Origin: a virus
Taxonomy: Duplodnaviria > Heunggongvirae > Uroviricota > Caudoviricetes
Reading direction: 5' to 3' (one strand)
Virus record (IMG/VR): IMGVR_UViG_2585427764_000003
DNA length: 19,081 nt
Position numbers and translations under genes: made by a program
The notes under the pieces: model-generated
The model's database searches: none
What the model was told of the DNA's origin: nothing
What the model saw: the letters and a program-made list of their open reading frames with translations, nothing else
Part shown: positions 1 to 18,594 of the stretch, one piece after another
Layout: every line of letters begins with the position of its first letter
Numbering within the stretch: position 1 is the first letter of the stretch

Positions 1-1145
1 GACGATGCGGCAGCCGTTTTTGAGGATTCTGCGCTGGTTTCCGACGCTTTCGCGTTCGTTTCGGATGTCTTCGCTGCGGAAGCTGACCTCGCTGCTGCGC
101 TGGCCTGCTCAGTGGCTTCGCCAGCCTTCGTTGTGGCTGTTGAAGCGGATGATGCGGCGCTTTCTGCCGATTTTCCGGCGGCGGTGGCACTGGCTGAGGC
201 CTGCCCGGCACTTGTTGACGCGGCGCTGGCAGACGACGCAGCCGCTGTTTTTGAGCCTGCCGCAGCCGAGGCGCTCTGTCCCGCTGCCGTTTCAGAAGAC
301 CTGGCGTTTGTCTCAGACGTCTTTGCCGCCTTCGCGGAATTGCCTGCCGCCGTTGCCGAGGAAGCGGCACTACTGGCGCTTGATGATGCGTTCGTTTCTG
401 ATGATTTCGCTGCCTCTTTTGAGGCCGCCGCATCCCGGGCTGAGGTGGCTGCTTCTGACGCCTTCGTGGTCGCGGCGGATGCAGAAGTGGCTGCTGATTG
501 TTGTGACGCTGCCGCATTCGTTTCTGACGTTTTCGCCGCACCGGCACTGGTAGTTGCCGCGCTTTTTGAGGACTCTGCAGCAGCAGCACTTTTTGCTGCT
601 TCACGGGCCTTTGTCGATGCCGTTCCTGCGCTGGAAGACGCTGACTGAGCCGACGACGCGGCCTGTCCGGCTGACGTGCTGGCTGCGCGTGCTGAGCCTG
701 CAGCATCAGTCGCATGGGTTGCCGCCTCACGGGCTGATGTGCTGGCATCGCTGGCTGACTTCTTCGCGGCTGCCGTGTTCTGTGCCACCGCGGACGCGTT
801 ACGCGCCACCTCTTCCACCATCAGCTCAAAACGGCGCAGTGCCTCCGGACGGGCATCATCCTCCGTCATGGCACCGAGAAAATCATTCAGCGTACCGGGC
901 CGGGAATCTTCATACACGGTGATGGTCCCGGCATGTGACGGCGGGAATCCCTCCACCAACAGAATAACGCTGTACTGCCCGTACTCAACGTCCATGCTGT
1001 AACGCCCGGCTTCATCCGGATTTTCTGAGGCCAGCGTGTTCACCACCACCGTGGTGCTGTTACGTTTTGCTTTCAGCTGGATTGTGCAGTTCTGTACCGG
1101 TTTTCCTGTGCCGTCTTTCAGTACACCTGAAATCTTTACTGCCAT
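1..1145 (-). CDS. stf: Side tail fiber protein Stf, N-terminal ~380 codons; ORF continues beyond the window start (3' end not in window)
   Basis: Minus-strand translation from ATG at 1143-1145 reads MAVKISGVLKDGTGKPVQNCTIQLKAKRNSTTVVVNTLASENPDEAGRY..., then Ser/Ala/Thr-rich repeats (KTSETNA, SAAT); frame stays open to position 1. Matches lambda Stf (orf-401) N-terminus as recalled. The lom-stf gap of 64 nt matches lambda. Confidence 0.85.
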   Translation of the reverse strand, partial: MAVKISGVLKDGTGKPVQNCTIQLKAKRNSTTVVVNTLASENPDEAGRYSMDVEYGQYSVILLVEGFPPSHAGTITVYEDSRPGTLNDFLGAMTEDDARPEALRRFELMVEEVARNASAVAQNTAAAKKSASDASTSAREAATHATDAAGSARAASTSAGQAASSAQSASSSAGTASTKAREAAKSAAAAESSKSAATTSAGAAKTSETNAAASQQSAATSASAATTKASEAATSARDAAASKEAAKSSETNASSSASSAASSATAAGNSAKAAKTSETNARSSETAAGQSASAAAGSKTAAASSASAASTSAGQASASATAAGKSAESAASSASTATTKAGEATEQASAAARSASAAKTSETNAKASETSAESSKTAAAS

Positions 1146-1209: not shown

Positions 1210-1809
1210 TCAGAATTTATAACCGACACCCACGATGAAACCGTCAGTGCGCCAGTCACCACTGCCGGAGCCTTCATAAGCAATATCAATGGCCACGGAT
1301 TCGGTCGGGTTAAACTGCACGCCAGCCCCCCACGCCAGAGACGTGTTGCTGTGGCGACCGTCATCACTTCCGGTCAGCACATCGTGCGTTTTCCCCTTGT
1401 TGTCAGTTACGCGAAGATAATCCCCGGAGAAAGTCGACACACGGCTGTAAGCTACACCCGCCATCGCATACGCGCTGAACCATTCATTCACGCGCACAGA
1501 CGGCCCCGCCATTACGCTGAACCAGCGGTTACGAACGGAATCTTCATGCCAGCGGGTATCGCTGTAACGGGTCAGCTGGCGATTCTTGTCTCCTGCATAG
1601 CTGAATGACGTCACCAGCCCCAGTGTGTCCGTAAACTCATAACGGTATTTCACGTTAATCCCGTTCAGATCATCACTGCCGGGGACGTTCGTCGAGGCAT
1701 GAAGATACCCCGCGCTCAGCGTGGACTGATGTTCAGACGCCCATGCAGGCGCACCGGATACGGCCAGACAAATGGCTGCGGACAAAATTGCTGCACAAAC
1801 TTTACGCAT
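1210..1809 (-). CDS. lom: Lom outer-membrane protein (Ail/OmpX/Lom family), lysogenic-conversion moron
   Basis: 199-aa ORF MRKVCAAILSAAICLAVSGAPAWASEHQ...GFIVGVGYKF with signal peptide and C-terminal aromatic residue typical of beta-barrel OMPs; near-identical to lambda Lom as recalled. SD GAGAGG lies upstream of the ATG. Confidence 0.9.
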   Translation of the reverse strand: MRKVCAAILSAAICLAVSGAPAWASEHQSTLSAGYLHASTNVPGSDDLNGINVKYRYEFTDTLGLVTSFSYAGDKNRQLTRYSDTRWHEDSVRNRWFSVMAGPSVRVNEWFSAYAMAGVAYSRVSTFSGDYLRVTDNKGKTHDVLTGSDDGRHSNTSLAWGAGVQFNPTESVAIDIAYEGSGSGDWRTDGFIVGVGYKF

Positions 1810-1879: not shown

Positions 1880-4800
1880 TCAACGAATACTGATGCCGGA
1901 AGCGGCTTTTTTGGTCACAATCACCGTACAGTCGGTGATATTGCCTGCCCCCTGATTGCCTTTCTGGAAAATCTTAAACTCCAGAGTGACGCTTCCCCTG
2001 CCACTCGGCATATCAATAACTGCACTGTAACTACCGGGAATGGCCCCTTTAGTTTCTCTGGATGCGATTAATACGCCGTTTTTGCGAACTTCAAAACCAT
2101 AACCCGTGTATCGCGTGCCTCCTGGGTTATTTCCGCTCCCCGGATCGTCATACGCTATACCGTTAAAAATAATGGGCGGAATAATAATCTGGCGGTCAAA
2201 GTTATGATCATCGCTGATGGTGACTGTAACCGTACCGTTTGGTGTTTCCGTGTTACCCCACGTACCGACTTTTTTCGGGAAGGCTTTTGATACAGCTTTA
2301 ACGAAATCTCCTCTGACCTGGGTCGCCTCCAGCATGCCCTTAATCGTACAGTTCTGGTTAATCGTGACATTGTTGAGCGTTCCTGAGTTCGCATTCACAC
2401 TGCCACTGATATCCGCATTTTTCGCCGTCAGTCTCCCGTCTGATGTCAGGGAAAATACCGGAGGACTGCCACCGCTGGTAATGGTGGGTGCCGTCAGGCG
2501 TTTCAGGAACACTTCATTCATGAATATCTGATCGCCCTGACCAACAAACATCGGCTTTGTGTTGCCATTCGCAGGATTAATCATCGCAATCCTGTCTGCT
2601 GCCAGCAGCACCTGACTCTGCATGCCGTCAGGGGTGTTCTCAATACTGGGGCCGATACCCGCGATATAATGTTTGCCGTCTTCGGTCTGCTCAATTTTGA
2701 CGCCCCACATGGCATTTTATTTATCGTTGGCGTCTTTCCACTCTTTCGATGACTCGTTTATTCTGCTGGCGTTATCCTCCGTCAGCTCGACTTTTTCCTG
2801 CCCACAGCTCCTGAGCCAGATGGGTTTTCCCTATCTCGCCTTTGAAAAAATCCAGATAGCCTGATGCATCATCACTCGGCTGACCGACAGCCTCCACGAA
2901 TGCCGATTTGCCAACGGTGTTCACACTGCGAACGTAAAAATAATAATCATGGCCCGGTTTGATATTGATACTGGCGGCTATCCAGTACAGTGCCGTACCA
3001 AGATAACGGGCTGTGGTTTCAACCTGCCTGATATCCGCAATCCGCTTTTCCGAGAACCAGAACTCAAACTGTACCGTCGGGTCATAAACGGCAAGATGCG
3101 GCGTGGCGGTTATCTGAAAATAGCCCGGCGTCAGCTCAATCCTCGACGGTGCTGCCGGTGCGGCAATCCGGAACGATACCGACGCCGGATCGCCCTGCTG
3201 CCCCCACGCATTTACCGCCCGGACTGTCAGCCTGTAGTTCCCCAGCGCCAGTTGCGTGAAGCGGTATGTGGTTTCCGTCGTCCGGGCCGTGCTGACCAGC
3301 CGCTCACTGCCGTCATCCGCTGTTACGGTCAGGCGGAGCATGAAGCTCACGCCCTTCACCACCTTCGGCGTGTCCCAGCGGGCCAGCACCTGATATTCCC
3401 CGCTGCCTGCGGTGACTTCGGCGGTCAGGTGCTGCACCGCTGGCGGCGTGACACCATTCACCGTGCCGCTCTGGTCGCCGTCAAAGTGCGCCCCGTTATC
3501 CACGATGGCTTCTTTTTCCGGTACATGCTGCACGGCAGTGATGGCATACGTGCCGTCATCGTTCTCACGGATACTCACACAGCGGAACAGGCGCTGGCGC
3601 AGCGTCGGCAGCTTAAGCCCCCACACGCTGTATTCAGCAACACCGTCAGGAACCCGGCTAACTTTTACCTTCACGCCGTCGGTGACGGACTGGACCTCCA
3701 CGCTGACCGGATTGCCACTTCCGTCAACCAGGCTTATTAGCGTGGTACCGGAGGATGGCAGCGTGATTTCACGGTCGAGCGTCAGCGTCCGGGTCTGGCT
3801 GTTCACAGCTAGCACGCGCCCGCCGATGCTGATCCCCGCATAGTCATCATCGCAGATTTCAATGACATCCCCCGGTACATGGCGAAGCCCTTCCGCACCC
3901 ACGCTGAAGTCCACGGTCTGCGTTTCCAGCAGTTCCGTTTTAATCAGCCACAGCCCGGCGCGGTGCGCCTGCCCCCGTCTGGTACAGCCAAAGGCATCCA
4001 TCTTCGTGACATTACGACCGTAACGGGCAATGGCCTGCGTATCTTCAACAAGCTCTGTCGCCGTCTCCCAGCCGTTGTTCGGGTCAATCCAGTTCACCTC
4101 AACGGCATTATGGCGGTCTTTCAGGGCGCTGAAACTGTAGCGGAACGGCGCGCCATCATCCGGCATCACCACATTACTGCGGTTATAGGCCCACACCTTA
4201 TCCGACGGTCGGTCCTGCACGAACGTCAGCGTCTGCCCGTTCCATACCGGCATACAGCGCATCGCCGAGCAGAAATCACTGAGCACATCCCACGCCTTGC
4301 GCTGTGTGGTCAGGTACGCATTACAGGTGATGCGCGGCTCCGTGCCGCCAAAGCCGTCCGGCACTGACTGGTCGCAGTACTGGCCGATGACATACAGCGC
4401 CCATTTATCCACATCCGCCGCACCAAGACGTTTTCCCATGCCGTAGCGCGGGTGGGTCAGCATATCCCACAGACACCAGGCCATGTTGTTGCTGTATGCT
4501 GGTTTTAACGTTCCGTCCCAGATACCACTGTATTGCCGCGTCTGCGGGTTATAGTTCGACGGCACCTGCAGAATGCGCCCGCGCAGATGATAATTACGGC
4601 TCACCTGCTGGCTGCCGAACTGCTCCGAGTCCACCTGCACGCCGATCAGTGCCGTGTTCGGGTAGCACTGTTTCACATCGATAATTTCGGTGTATGACGA
4701 CCAGAGCGTTTTGTTCTGCAGCTGGTCTGTGGTGCTGTCCGGCGTCATCCTGCGCATCCGGATATTAAACGGGCGCGGCGGCAGGTTATCCACCACCACC

Positions 4801-5297
4801 GAGGCCAGATACTGCGAGGTGGTTTTGCCCTTAATGGTGATGTCTTTTTCCGTCACCCAGCCACCATTACGCTGTATCTGAACCAGCAGGCGGACTTCCG
4901 ATGGATTCCTGTCCCCCTTTGAGGTGGTTTCCACCAGTGCCTGTACACCGAAGGTAAAGCGCAGACGGTCGATGTTTGCCGACGTGATGGTCCGGGTGAT
5001 CGGCGTGTCATATTTCACTTCTGTACCGAGCACCGTCTCGGAGCCGGAGGATTCAAATCCCTCCGGCGGTGTCTGCTCCTGCTCACCGGCCCGGAACACC
5101 ACCGTGACGCCGGATATATTGGTATTCCCCTCACTGTCCAGCACCGGCGTACTGTTCAGCAGCACGCTTTTTAATCCATCCACCGGACCTTCAACCGGCC
5201 CTTCGCTGATGGCATCGATCACACTCAGCAGCTGCGTGGACTTCAGGTTGTCCTTCGCTTCGCGCGGGGTATGCCCCTTACTGCTGCCTTTACCCAT
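1880..5297 (-). pseudogene. J: Tail tip/central fiber host-specificity protein J, disrupted; two ORF fragments 2772..5297 (841 aa, N-terminal) and 1880..2710 (276 aa, C-terminal)
   Basis: N-terminal ORF begins [24 protein letters not shown] (lambda J start). The two fragments are in different frames (top coordinate mod 3 = 2 vs 1). In the downstream frame the sequence reads ...[36 protein letters not shown] with TAA at 2717-2719. An apparent +4 nt insertion lies near 2799-2809. Confidence 0.8.
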
Positions 5298-7703: not shown

Positions 7704-10261
7704 CGTCCACCTCCGGAGAACAGGCCACCATCACGCATCTGTGTCTGAATTTCATCACGGGCACCCTTGCGGGCCATGTCATACACCGTCTTCAGAGCAG
7801 CCGGACCTATCTGCCCGTTCGTGCCGTCGTTGTTAATCACCACATGGTTATTCTGCTCAAACGTCCCGGACGCCTGCGACCGGCTGTCTGCCAGACTGCC
7901 CGGTGTACCGACATAACCGCCGGTGGCATAGCCGCGCATCAGCCGGTAGAGATTCCCCACGCCAATCCGGCTGGTTGCCTCCTTCGTGAAGACAAATTCA
8001 CCACGGTGAACAATCCCCGCTGGCTCATATTTGCCGCCGGTTCCCGTAAATCCCCCGGTCGCAAAATGGAATTTCGCAGCAGCTGCCTGAATGGCTGTAC
8101 CGCCTGACGCGGATGCGCCGCCACCAACAGCCCCGCCAATGGCGCTGCCGATACTCCCGACAATCCCCACCATTGCCTGCTTAAGCAGAATTTCTGTCAT
8201 CATGGACAGCACGGAACGGGTGAAGCTGCGCCAGTTCTGCTCACTGCCGGTCAGCATCGCCGCCATATTCTGTGCAATACCATCAAAGGTCTGCGTGGCT
8301 GCACTTTTAACCTGCGACATACTGTCCGTGGCGCTCTCTTCCCACTCACTCCAGCCGGACTTCAGGCCTGCCATCCAGCTCCCGCGAAGCTGGTCTTCAG
8401 CCGCCCAGGTCTTTTTCTGCTCTGACATGACGTTATTCAGCGCCAGCGGATTATCGCCATACTGTTCCTTCAGGCGCTGTTCCGTGGCTTCCCGTTCTGC
8501 CTGCCGGTCAGTCAGCCCCCGGCTTTTCGCATCAATGGCGGCCCGTTTTGCCCGTTGCTGCTGTGCGAATTTATCCGCCTGCTGCGCCAGCGCGTTCAGG
8601 CGCTCCTGATACGTAACCTTGTCGCCAAGTGCAGCCAGCTGGCGTTTGTACTCCAGCGTCTCATCTTTATGCGCCAGCAGGGATTTCTCCTGTGCAGACA
8701 GCTGGCGACGTTGCGCCGCCTCCTCCAGTACCGCGAACTGACTCTCCGCCTTCCACAAATCCCGGCGCTGCTGGCTGATTTTCTCATTTGCTCCGGCATG
8801 CTTCTCCAGCGTCCGGAGTTCAGCCTGAAGCGTCAGCAGGGCAGCATGAGCACTGTCTTCCTGACGATCGCCCGCAGACACCTTCACGCCGGACTGTTTC
8901 GGCTTTTTCAGCGTCGCTTCATAATCCTTTTTCGCCGCCGCCATCAGCGTGTTGTAATCTGCCTGCAGGATTTTCCCGTCTTTCAGTGCCTTATTCAGTT
9001 CCTCCTGACGGGCGGTATATTTCTCCAGCGGTGTCTGCAGGCGTTCGTAAGCCTTCTGTGCCTCTTCGGTATATTTCAGCCGTGACGCTTCGGTATCGCT
9101 CTGCTGCTGCGCATTTTTGTCCTGTTGACTCTGCTGCTCAGCCTTCTTTCGGGCGGCTTCAAGCGCAAGACGGGCCTTTTCACGATCATCCCAGTAACGC
9201 GCCCGCGCTTCATCGTTAACAAAATAATCATCCTTGCGCAGATTCCAGATGTCGTCTGCTTTCTTAAACGCAGCCTCTGCCTTAATCAACATCTCCTGCG
9301 CGGTATCAGGACGACCAATATCCAGCACCGCATCCCACATGGATTTGAATGCCCGCGCTGTCCTGTCTGCCCAGGTCTCCAGCGTGCCCATGTTCTCTTT
9401 CAGGCGGCGGGTCTGGTCATCAAACCCTTTCGTCGCGGCCTCGTTCGCCGCCTGCAATGCCCCGGCTTCTTCGCCGGAACGCTGCAACTGAGCAACATAC
9501 GCAATCTGCTCCGCCGTCACGTTATGGAACTGGCGCGCCATCGCTGTCAGCCCCGACGTCGGGTCAGTGGTCAGCTTCCCGAAGGCTTCAGCGACCTTGT
9601 CCACCTCCACGCCGGATGCAGAGGAGAAACGCGCCACACTCTGGCTGATGGACGCAATCTGAGCCTCACCGCTTACCCCCGCCTTAACCAGTGCGCTGAG
9701 TGACTCGCTGGTCTGGTTAAACGTCAGCCCTGCCGCCTGCCCGGCTCTGGACAGGACCAGCATACGATCTGCCGTCAGCCCGGCCTGATTGCCGGAAAGG
9801 ACCAGCGTTTTGTTGAAATCGGACAGGGTTGAGTTGCCCTGATACCAGGCATACGCCAGCGCACCGGTCGCCACCGCCAGCGAGGTGGCCCCGACCATCG
9901 GCAGGGTGATCGCACCGGCAAGCACCCTGAACATGGGGATCATCCCGCCGAAGGAGTCCTTCACCTGACCCCCCTGTTGCAGCAGGATCAGCCACGGACT
10001 CTGCTCGCCTGCAAGCTGCGTGGCCACGTCGGTGAACTGCGCAGGCAGCATACGCATGGCGGCTTTATACTGCCCGACGGAAATTCCCGCTTTCTGTGCA
10101 GCCAGCGCCTGCCGGTTCATCGACTGTTCAACGACTGCCGCTGTTTTTTTCGCATCACTTTCCGTACCGGAAAAATGACGCCTGACTCTGGCCATCTGCT
10201 CGTCAAATCTGGCCGCATCCAGACTCAAATCAACGACCAGATCGCCTACCGGTTCAGCCAT
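7700..10261 (-). CDS. H: Tail tape measure protein H
   Basis: 853-aa ORF MAEPVGDLVVDLSLDAARFDEQMARVRRHF... with long coiled-coil central region and Gly-rich C-terminus; same length as lambda gpH. Confidence 0.93.
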   Translation of the reverse strand: MAEPVGDLVVDLSLDAARFDEQMARVRRHFSGTESDAKKTAAVVEQSMNRQALAAQKAGISVGQYKAAMRMLPAQFTDVATQLAGEQSPWLILLQQGGQVKDSFGGMIPMFRVLAGAITLPMVGATSLAVATGALAYAWYQGNSTLSDFNKTLVLSGNQAGLTADRMLVLSRAGQAAGLTFNQTSESLSALVKAGVSGEAQIASISQSVARFSSASGVEVDKVAEAFGKLTTDPTSGLTAMARQFHNVTAEQIAYVAQLQRSGEEAGALQAANEAATKGFDDQTRRLKENMGTLETWADRTARAFKSMWDAVLDIGRPDTAQEMLIKAEAAFKKADDIWNLRKDDYFVNDEARARYWDDREKARLALEAARKKAEQQSQQDKNAQQQSDTEASRLKYTEEAQKAYERLQTPLEKYTARQEELNKALKDGKILQADYNTLMAAAKKDYEATLKKPKQSGVKVSAGDRQEDSAHAALLTLQAELRTLEKHAGANEKISQQRRDLWKAESQFAVLEEAAQRRQLSAQEKSLLAHKDETLEYKRQLAALGDKVTYQERLNALAQQADKFAQQQRAKRAAIDAKSRGLTDRQAEREATEQRLKEQYGDNPLALNNVMSEQKKTWAAEDQLRGSWMAGLKSGWSEWEESATDSMSQVKSAATQTFDGIAQNMAAMLTGSEQNWRSFTRSVLSMMTEILLKQAMVGIVGSIGSAIGGAVGGGASASGGTAIQAAAAKFHFATGGFTGTGGKYEPAGIVHRGEFVFTKEATSRIGVGNLYRLMRGYATGGYVGTPGSLADSRSQASGTFEQNNHVVINNDGTNGQIGPAALKTVYDMARKGARDEIQTQMRDGGLFSGGGR

Positions 10262-13639: not shown

Positions 13640-14665
13640 TTACGCCAGTTGTACGGACACGAACGCATCAGGGTCAGCCAGCAGCATCAGCGGTGCTGAC
13701 TGAATCATGGTGAACTCACGCGCCGGATCGCCGGTGGTCACCCAGTTTTTCGGGTAGCGGGCAGAGGCGTTAATACCTTCGCGCTGTGCGTCCGCATCCT
13801 GAATGCAGCCATAGGTGCGCAGACCGCGTGCCTGAGTGTTCCCCAGCACCATCGTGTTGTCCGGAAGGAAGTTCTTTTTGACGTCGTTTTCCACGTACTG
13901 TCCGGAATACACGACGATCGCCGTATCGCCATACATCCCCTTATAGGACACCGCTTCGCCCAGGTCTTTTACCGCTGTCTCCAGCTCGGAATTAGAGCCG
14001 CGACGGGTATCCAGCTTCTCCTTGACGGCTTTGAAGGAACGGAACAGCGCCCAGCCTTTCGGATCAAACACGATGATATTCACCACTCCGCTGGCGTTCA
14101 GCGCATAGGCTTCGATATCGTCGGTCGGGTCATACGTGGACTTGTCACGCTTGCTCCACTCCGTACCACCGGACTGTGTGATGTTGTTCGCCGCACTGCG
14201 GCCCATATCCACCTCAACCGGATCGAAGGCTTCACCGGTCATGGTGTATTTGCCCTTAAGCACAGCAGAAACTGCCTGCATCTCTTCGACCTGAGCAATG
14301 GCCAGCTCTTCGTCTCGCATGTTCTGCATGATGATGCGACGGCGGCGGTAAGCCGGGTCCGCCAGATTCTGCGGATCTTCATCCGGCAGGCGACGCAGGG
14401 TCATCTGCGGATTCACCTCATGCTTCGGCTTGACATATCCCGGTGTAAATTCAGAGGTGGAGCCGCCACGGGAGCGGATAACCTCACCGGAAACAATCGG
14501 CGAAACGTACAGCGCCATGTTTACCAGTCCCGGAATTTGTGAGAGATAGACTTTCTCCGTGGTGAAGGGATAGCTCTCACGGAAAAAGAGACGCAGAAAC
14601 AGCGGATCAAACTTAAATTTCTTCTCATTTGCCGCCAGCAGCTGGGCGGTTGTGTACATCGACAT
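13640..14665 (-). CDS. E: Major capsid protein E; own ATG at 14663-14665, but the reading frame is open upstream into C (no stop between C and E)
   Basis: 341 codons MSMYTTAQLLAANEKKFKFDPLFLRLFFRESYPFTTEKVYLSQIPG...DPDAFVSVQLA, near-identical to lambda gpE as recalled. Forms the 3' part of the 830-codon track ORF 13640..16132. Confidence 0.9.
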   Translation of the reverse strand: MSMYTTAQLLAANEKKFKFDPLFLRLFFRESYPFTTEKVYLSQIPGLVNMALYVSPIVSGEVIRSRGGSTSEFTPGYVKPKHEVNPQMTLRRLPDEDPQNLADPAYRRRRIIMQNMRDEELAIAQVEEMQAVSAVLKGKYTMTGEAFDPVEVDMGRSAANNITQSGGTEWSKRDKSTYDPTDDIEAYALNASGVVNIIVFDPKGWALFRSFKAVKEKLDTRRGSNSELETAVKDLGEAVSYKGMYGDTAIVVYSGQYVENDVKKNFLPDNTMVLGNTQARGLRTYGCIQDADAQREGINASARYPKNWVTTGDPAREFTMIQSAPLMLLADPDAFVSVQLA

Positions 14666-15977
14666 AAAAAAATCCCGTAAAAAAAAGCCGCACAGGCGGC
14701 CTTTAGTGATGAAGGATGCCGGGTTACCTGCAGCCAGCGGTGCCGGTGCCCCCTGCATCAGACGATCCAGCGCAGTGTCACTGCGCGCCTGTGCACTCTG
14801 TGGTGCAGCTGCCAGAATGCGGCGGGCCGTTTCCACGGTCATACCGGGGGTTTCTGCCAGCACGCGGGCCTGTTCTTCGCGTCCGTGAGCCTCCTCACAG
14901 TTGAGGATCCCCATAATGCGGCTGTTTTCTGCCGCAACCGCAGCGGTGATCTGCGCGTTCACGTCCGGCTGCGCCGCGCTGGCGTTTTCGCCCTCCGTCG
15001 CTGGCACCACGTCAGTAACGTCAGTCTGCGAAGCAGTGGCTGAAACAGTTGTTGATTGAGTCTCTTTGGTCATTCGCCCTCCTGAGAGACGGGATTTACG
15101 CGCATCCAGTGCATCACGCATGACGGTGATCGCATCGGTGCTGTTAACAAGTTCATCAGCCAGTCCGACATCAATGGCCTCCTGACCGCTGTACACTGCA
15201 GCCTCGGTATCCAGCACAGCCTGCACAGACAGGCCGGTATATGCCGACACCTTCTGCGCAAACATCTGGCGGGTTGCGTCCATCCGGGACTGCAGTGTCT
15301 CCCGGACGTCATCCGGAAGATGGCTGTAGGGATTGCCATCCACCTTATGGCTGCCGCTGTAAATCAGCGTGATTTCCACCCCCTGTTTCTCCAGGGCAGC
15401 ACCGTAATTACTGTGAGCCATCATGACGCCGATGGAGCCTGTCCGGGCGGTCTGCGTGACCAGACGCCGGGAGGCGGCACTGGCAAGCAGCTGACCTGCA
15501 CTGCAGTTCATGTCGTTGGCCAGCGCCCATACCGGTTTTATGTCTCGCACACGGGCGATGATGTCAGCGCAGTCAAATGCCCCCGCCACCATTCCGCCTG
15601 GCGTGTCCATATCGAGCAGAATGCCGTCCACCATCGGGTCGCTGGCAGCCTGTTGCAGACGGGCGATAATGCCGTTGTAACCGGTCATCCCCGAGTACGG
15701 CTGCAGCGCCCGCGTCCGGCTGACCAGCGTGCCGGACACCGGCAGCACGGCGATGCCGTTCATGACCTGATAACTGCGGGCCTGTCGTGGCCCGTCATCA
15801 TTACCGGATAACGCCAGCGTCGCGGGTGCCTCTCCGGCAGTCAGGCTGTCACCGGACACCGCATCCGTCAGGCGGCTGATCCCCAGCTGGCCTGCAAGCG
15901 CACAAAAGAAAACCCGCGCATAGGCGGGTTCAAGCATCAGCGGCTCATTAAAGGCCATACTGGCAATATGCGGGAGA

Positions 15978-15997
<20 letters not shown>
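14666..15997 (-). pseudogene. C: Head protease/minor capsid protein C with embedded scaffold Nu3, 3'-truncated (about 428 of 439 codons, no stop) and fused in frame to E through a 16-codon linker
   Basis: GTG start at 15995-15997 preceded by SD AGGAGG; 20-nt overlap with the B stop as in lambda; product VTAELRNLPHIASMAFNEPLMLEPAYARVFF...APLAAGNPAS then FITKGRLCGFFLRDFF then MSMY (E). The interval between C start and E start is 1332 nt here versus 1717 nt in lambda as recalled. Confidence 0.8.

Positions 15998-18594
<2,597 letters not shown>

Follow-up and report, generated by a model that had tools for sequence, protein, structure and literature searches.

Genes and domains at the J locus

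The window analyzed here, meaning the whole 19,081-nt stretch of DNA, is contig JORX01000030.1 from the draft Escherichia coli 6-537-08_S3_C2 assembly (GCA_000713415.1). When searched with lambda proteins by tblastn, it was found to carry a lambda-like prophage's late genes, which lie on the minus strand and are arranged as in lambda (A', W, B, C, E, FI, FII, Z, U, V, G, T, H, M, L, K, I, J, lom, and stf), and the closest phage overall was PhiR34_1, at 97–98% identity. The tail proteins other than J had been described in the initial annotation as nearly identical to those of lambda, and this was borne out by tblastn, which gave 97–100% identity for Z, U, V, G, H, M, L, K, and I. Within the gene for the tape-measure protein H, ~185 nt (9091–9276) gave no alignment to PhiR34_1 at the BLAST threshold used, yet H matched lambda H at 98.6% identity along its full length of 853 aa; we therefore regard this stretch as a small mosaic patch in H.

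J occupies positions 1880–5297 on the minus strand, 3' of Z-U-V-G-T-H-M-L-K-I and 5' of lom and stf, which is its position in lambda-like tail modules. However, the single open frame of ~1130–1165 codons expected for J is absent here, and the gene is instead divided into two ORFs of 841 and 276 aa. The N-terminal 841-codon ORF (2772–5297, minus strand) encodes the hub and FNIII/Ig domains together with the first part of the helical shaft, and its last 10 residues are frameshifted. The 276-aa ORF (1880–2710, minus strand), which is the stretch quoted in the initial annotation, begins with the central straight fibre, a beta-prism stem formed by residues 1–117 (2360–2710), and ends with a module that we assign below to the 434 (h434) type of receptor-binding domain (1880–2359), comprising the 159 last codons and the stop codon at 1880–1882.

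Pfam searches detected FNIII-A_GpJ, Phage-tail_3, Ig_J, and Ig_J_second in the 841-aa ORF, followed in the 276-aa ORF by Phage_Tail_Tip (PF09327; residues 1–111) and Ig_GpJ_C (PF12421; residues 140–275, approximately positions 1886–2293 on the minus strand; E = 3e-26). The two ORFs together thus hold, in this order, the six Pfam families of lambda-like J, all above gathering scores. By domains and synteny, J belongs to the lambda-like tip attachment proteins (central tail fibres); what it lacks is an intact frame.

Downstream of J lies lom (1210–1809, minus strand), encoding an Ail/Lom outer-membrane protein of 199 aa (Pfam Ail_Lom, E = 1.5e-122), and beyond it the 5' portion of stf, the side tail fibre gene (1–1145, minus strand), which runs off the contig end and matched lambda orf-401 residues 1–285 at 87% by tblastn. 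Lom is 46% identical to lambda Lom, while its length of 199 aa and its position 3' of J match the lom of 434 and PhiR34_1 (600-nt genes). Since length and position are the same in these phages, the J receptor-binding domain and lom may travel together as a single mosaic block.

Divergence and identity of the J end

We compared both ORFs with lambda J (NC_001416) by BLASTP. The 841-aa ORF was 97% identical to lambda J residues 1–831, while the 276-aa ORF was 54% identical to residues 862–1132, and this figure was unevenly distributed. The stem (residues 1–117) reached 78.6% identity with lambda J 862–978 and 90.6% with mEp332, whereas residues 118–276 (NQNCTIKG..., positions 1883–2359) showed only 37.4% identity with lambda J 980–1132, with several indels. 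The same contrast was seen in the nucleotide alignment, where mismatches to lambda were sparse down to ~2384 and dense from ~2360 to the stop codon, with ~50% identity per 150-nt block. The initial annotation had proposed that the last ~150 residues of J differ substantially from lambda, beginning at position 2350; the last 159 aa do so, at 37.4% compared with 97% for J 1–831, and the boundary was right to within ~10 nt, given that mismatches become dense from ~2360. High identity to lambda J 980–1132, which would have spoken for a LamB-type end, was looked for and not found (61 identities in 163 columns, or 37.4%).

The overall layout of the lambda domain was nevertheless kept, as had also been proposed. 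In addition to the Ig_GpJ_C match, an AlphaFold model of the J end had block-mean pLDDT values of ~75–95 over the receptor-binding domain (the stem, which folds only as a trimer, was modeled poorly), and the top PDB matches of the modeled domain were A8 gpJ, both closed (9WCA) and open with OmpC (9WCB), and lambda gpJ, both closed (8XCK) and open with LamB (8XCJ). A8 gpJ was the best solved-structure match for the J end by sequence search as well as by fold. From the alignment and the model, the strand framework of the 434-type domain is predicted to be kept relative to lambda, with changes in sequence and length mainly between the predicted strands, the expected route to altered porin specificity.

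The 159-aa block was 96.9% identical (154 of 159 aa) to residues 979–1137 of the J protein of phage 434, with five differences (N158D, R238G, I247V, Q249H, and G254R in the numbering of the 276-aa ORF). At the nucleotide level, the 471-nt 3' end of J was 97.2–97.5% identical to 434 and lambda h434 imm21, 98–99% identical to several Stx2 phages, and 100% identical to Kati, ev243, mEp332, PhiR34_1, PhiR42_1, PhiR68_2, and phiSTEC1575-Stx2k. The amino acid block was likewise 100% identical in the J proteins of mEp332, PhiR34_1, and E. coli AF39. In lambda h434 imm21, J follows lambda sequence to ~nt 2130 and 434 sequence beyond it; this switch lies upstream of the block, so the classical h434 host-range allele, the provenance of which is given in PMC9119081, contains exactly this domain. 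Judged on sequence, the J end is a member of the 434-type receptor-binding domains.

The closest known systems can be ordered around this assignment. Phage 434 J (OL657226, UMO75286.1) and the h434 allele in lambda h434 imm21 (OM418627) share with the window the type of receptor-binding domain and a 199-aa lom 3' of J. The 434 J (1137 aa) is of the same length as here and, as here, departs from lambda at ~residue 979; it differs in being intact, whereas J in the window has an mEp332-like stem and a private, broken shaft. The receptor-binding domains of mEp332 (PV340541), PhiR34_1 (PV340559), Kati, ev243, and phiSTEC1575-Stx2k are 100% identical to the one here in both nucleotides and amino acids, and from position 2675 to the J end, mEp332 differs from the window by 14 nt mismatches, none of them below 2457. 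Lambda J itself (P03749; structures 8XCK and, with LamB, 8XCJ) belongs to the same family, with the same domain order and Ig-like receptor-binding fold, but its receptor-binding domain is only 37.4% identical and its receptor is LamB. The A8 gpJ chimera (9WCA; 9WCB with EDL933 OmpC; PMC11338833) has a J end of natural origin, from an E. coli prophage, which retargets lambda particles to OmpC. Its receptor-binding domain is ~42% identical to that of the window, such that the fold is common but the allele type is different; among the relatives, P0111 and P0119 are of the A8 type. We also searched for Eligo's second OmpC chimera, 1A2, as a possible 434 type, and DNA and peptide strings found no match in the supplement of PMC11338833, possibly on account of line breaks in the PDF.

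The receptor of phage 434 is OmpC, and lambda carrying the 434 J binds OmpC, not LamB (PMC11101478, PMC3509688). OmpC was also shown by knockout and complementation to be needed by an EHEC siphophage with a predicted tail fibre resembling the 434 and lambda central fibres (PMC12502783). In an intact J, the Ig-like, trimer-forming domain would be located distally on the central tail fibre, with three copies forming a knob, and, by analogy with relatives, the bottom loops of the domain would insert into a trimeric porin from the extracellular side. In 434 and the lambda h434 hybrids, the domain directs adsorption to OmpC instead of LamB. In lambda, receptor binding spreads the knob, a twist runs up the stem and shaft, and the tail tip opens (PMC11101478). 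On the strength of the 97% identity to 434, the swapped J end most likely specifies a receptor other than LamB, namely OmpC.

It could still be that the five differences from 434 lead the domain to bind a receptor different from OmpC, or restrict it to certain alleles of OmpC. One or a few substitutions in the lambda J receptor-binding domain can extend host range, e.g., to OmpF (cited in PMC11101478), and A8 and 1A2, both natural gpJ receptor-binding domains, differ in the range of OmpC alleles they use (PMC11338833). Yet the domain is 96.9% identical to that of 434, this allele prevails among phages able to plate on K-12 hosts (e.g., mEp332 and PhiR34_1, which are kept on MG1655), and we found no evidence for another receptor. 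We found no published receptor assay for the phages with the identical domain (mEp332, the PhiR phages, Kati, and ev243). We consider a different receptor quite unlikely and retain OmpC, although the five residues may reflect an allele tuned to particular OmpC variants, an idea that is not new in principle.

The initial annotation had viewed the J end as a localized mosaic replacement that may specify a different receptor. That it is a replacement holds, in the form of a 434/h434-type swap, but the swap is not unusual, and the fragment sits in an interrupted J. Comparison with J proteins of known receptor use, as had been suggested, identified a block of the type used by an OmpC user, and one that is identical to several sequenced phages. 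The J-end block is thus already known and is no novel variant.

We also examined how the block is joined to the rest of J in other phages and prophages. The exact 159-aa block was present in 30 of the 149 relatives from the protein search, and both shaft motifs were represented among the relatives: the identical block was joined to several kinds of upstream segment, among them the short lambda-type helical shaft (intact example, AF39) and the long mEp332-type shaft, ELWTQIDNGQLAPDLAEIRTS (intact example, mEp332). Other receptor-binding domain types, the A8 type included, were joined to the same stems as the 434-type block, and the shared boundary of these swaps was a conserved 17-residue motif. 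The swap boundary here, at approximately lambda residue 979, is near the point that engineers have used, since OmpC-directed lambda particles were made by grafting at lambda residue 964 (Brodel et al. 2024, PMC11338833). Among 5,426 complete E. coli genomes, 2,113 (~39%) contained matches to the 434-type block, with 565 records at 99% identity or more, and a single genome may hold up to 17 J-like places. To judge from these joins, the 159-aa block is a recombination cassette that is set on differing upstream J segments in many E. coli phages and prophages.

The break in J and the state of the prophage

To locate the interruption, J from the window was aligned with lambda, 434, mEp332, and E. 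coli AF39 using MAFFT. The shaft was of the mEp332 type down to ~2803 and then of the lambda/434 type, out of frame, which places a frameshift and recombination junction in the alpha-helical shaft at 2792–2805 (minus strand). At this junction, the window has 4 nt more than lambda, 434, and AF39 (GTGG, 2802–2805), a difference that can equally be written as a single additional A within the A5 run at 2792–2796. Because the junction is out of frame, the upstream J frame ends at a TAA at 2772–2774 after ten wrong residues. A second lesion, another TAA at 2717–2719 (minus strand), stands in the downstream frame, 25 codons past the junction and 3 codons 5' of the ATG of the 276-aa ORF, at a position occupied by TGG (Trp, ...DKWNAMW...) in lambda, 434, and AF39. 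Both lesions fall in the helical shaft, which in the lambda gpJ structure separates the FNIII domains from the beta-prism stem (PMC11101478). The J proteins of the mEp332/PhiR34_1 group, in contrast, are intact, with 1165 aa and a helical shaft ~28 aa longer; the shaft in the window is mostly of the short lambda type and out of frame. The junction of mEp332-type and lambda-type shaft, followed by the TAA, splits J as encoded here and separates the receptor-binding domain from the hub.

Programmed frameshifting across the break was considered and rejected: the sequence contains no canonical slippery heptamer, slipping by -1 leads into the wrong frame, and translation would in any case end at the TAA.

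Since the 276-aa ORF is complete from ATG to stop and is deposited in GenBank as a protein of its own (KEN18727.1), it might be read as an independently translated gene for a free fibre-plus-receptor-binding protein, e.g., a decoy or a superinfection-exclusion factor. However, its ATG (2708–2710) is an internal Met of J, conserved in the ...NAMW... of every intact J aligned, and the 15 nt upstream (gataaataaaatgcc) hold no Shine-Dalgarno-like sequence. The split form, represented by KEN18727.1 and KEN18728.1, was also found on this contig only among 2,965 cluster members. The internal Met start, the missing ribosome-binding site, and the single occurrence led us to reject independent expression, and we give this reading hardly any credence; the two ORFs are better taken as parts of one interrupted J.

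The sequence around the break was not found elsewhere. A 39-mer over the frameshift and a 33-mer over 'SRINESSKEW' had no exact match in the GTDB species genomes, nor did the 33-mer have one in IMG/VR. A megablast search of 2640–2900 against complete E. coli genomes and phages gave full-length identities of at most 87%, and when the conceptually repaired segment was compared with 5.8 billion proteins, the best match was 90%, with 'RINESS' and 'ELWAGK' in no match. Relative to AF39, the nearest relative, the window carries eight substitutions within ~50 nt (2715–2765; CTGGAG to ATAAAC, TTT to TCA, and TGG to TAA), half of them G-to-A, while the flanks are the same as in AF39. The cluster may represent a patch derived from a J lineage not yet sampled, or else local decay or an error in the consensus.

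Lesions are also present in other parts of the prophage. At the end of the window, ~18570–19081 matches one end of an IS66-family element (tnpA accessory gene region) at 98.7–99.4% identity; this element is common in E. coli, both in chromosomes and on plasmids. This IS66-like end adjoins the terminase gene A at residue 370, leaving A interrupted or truncated. The portal gene B is frameshifted at 16663, where one G of GGGAAAGGCTG is lost compared with PhiR34_1, splitting B into parts of 306 and 204 aa; the 1-nt loss may reflect genuine decay or an error in the draft assembly. Also compared with PhiR34_1, a 385-bp deletion (window 14665–14715) has removed the decoration gene D entirely, together with the D–E spacer and the final codons of C/Nu3. 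As a consequence, C (aa 1–428) and the major capsid protein E (aa 1–341) now share one frame (ORF 13640–16132, minus strand; ~785–830 codons) with no stop between them. The window as a whole is 96–98% identical to phages of the mEp332/PhiR34_1 group, from which it thus differs in having no gene D and a broken portal gene.

These lesions bear on whether J might be intact in the real genome, its frameshift and stop being artefacts of a short-read draft in which, for example, overlapping reads from several lambdoid J paralogues with long and short shafts garbled the consensus, so that the strain would carry a working 434-type J. Several features are compatible with such an error. The contig comes from a draft whole-genome shotgun assembly and ends in repeated sequence (the IS66-like element and stf), the J frameshift can be described as a single extra A in a run, and sequencing error could account for both this extra A and the G missing from a GG in B. 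Moreover, the ~90-nt stretch that holds both lesions (2715–2805) matches no other sequence found, and up to 17 J-like places occur in E. coli genomes. Nevertheless, the change from TGG to TAA takes two adjacent substitutions, the eight substitutions cluster in the same 50 nt, and the two sides of the junction have no k-mer in common for an assembler to cross. The remainder of the 19 kb is clean, at 96–100% identity to relatives, and neither the 385-bp deletion of gene D nor the IS66-like element at terminase A is a sequencing error. An intact J thus seems improbable to us, and the identity of the receptor-binding domain is unchanged even if J is intact.

As encoded in the contig, J is a pseudogene, and the break is probably real, given that the same prophage carries three further lesions. 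The IS element and the 385-bp deletion, not being sequencing errors, speak for a decaying prophage, which a decayed J fits, and we infer that the lesions arose biologically and are not draft-assembly errors. With J split by a frameshift and a stop, the receptor-binding domain cannot be attached to a tail and has no function in situ; and with J interrupted alongside at least three other disabling lesions, the domain as encoded here cannot set any host range. Together, these results very probably identify positions 1880–2359 as the 434-type (h434) receptor-binding cassette of J, located in a J pseudogene of a defective prophage.

Significance for lambdoid host range

The h434 host-range module has been known since the 1960s–70s, and the locus described here has little significance beyond annotation, being a textbook case of the modularity of host range in lambdoid J. 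For annotation, KEN18727.1 and KEN18728.1 are halves of one J pseudogene, and the prophage is defective. For this reason, it would be wrong to count the locus as either a functional phage or evidence for a new receptor specificity.

A decayed prophage may nonetheless act as a reservoir. The 434-type cassette is itself intact and is flanked by conserved J stem sequence and lom, and although the idea is not new in principle, we suggest as a tentative and rather doubtful possibility that the cassette might be rescued by homologous recombination, by which an infecting lambdoid phage would shift its receptor from LamB or FhuA to OmpC.
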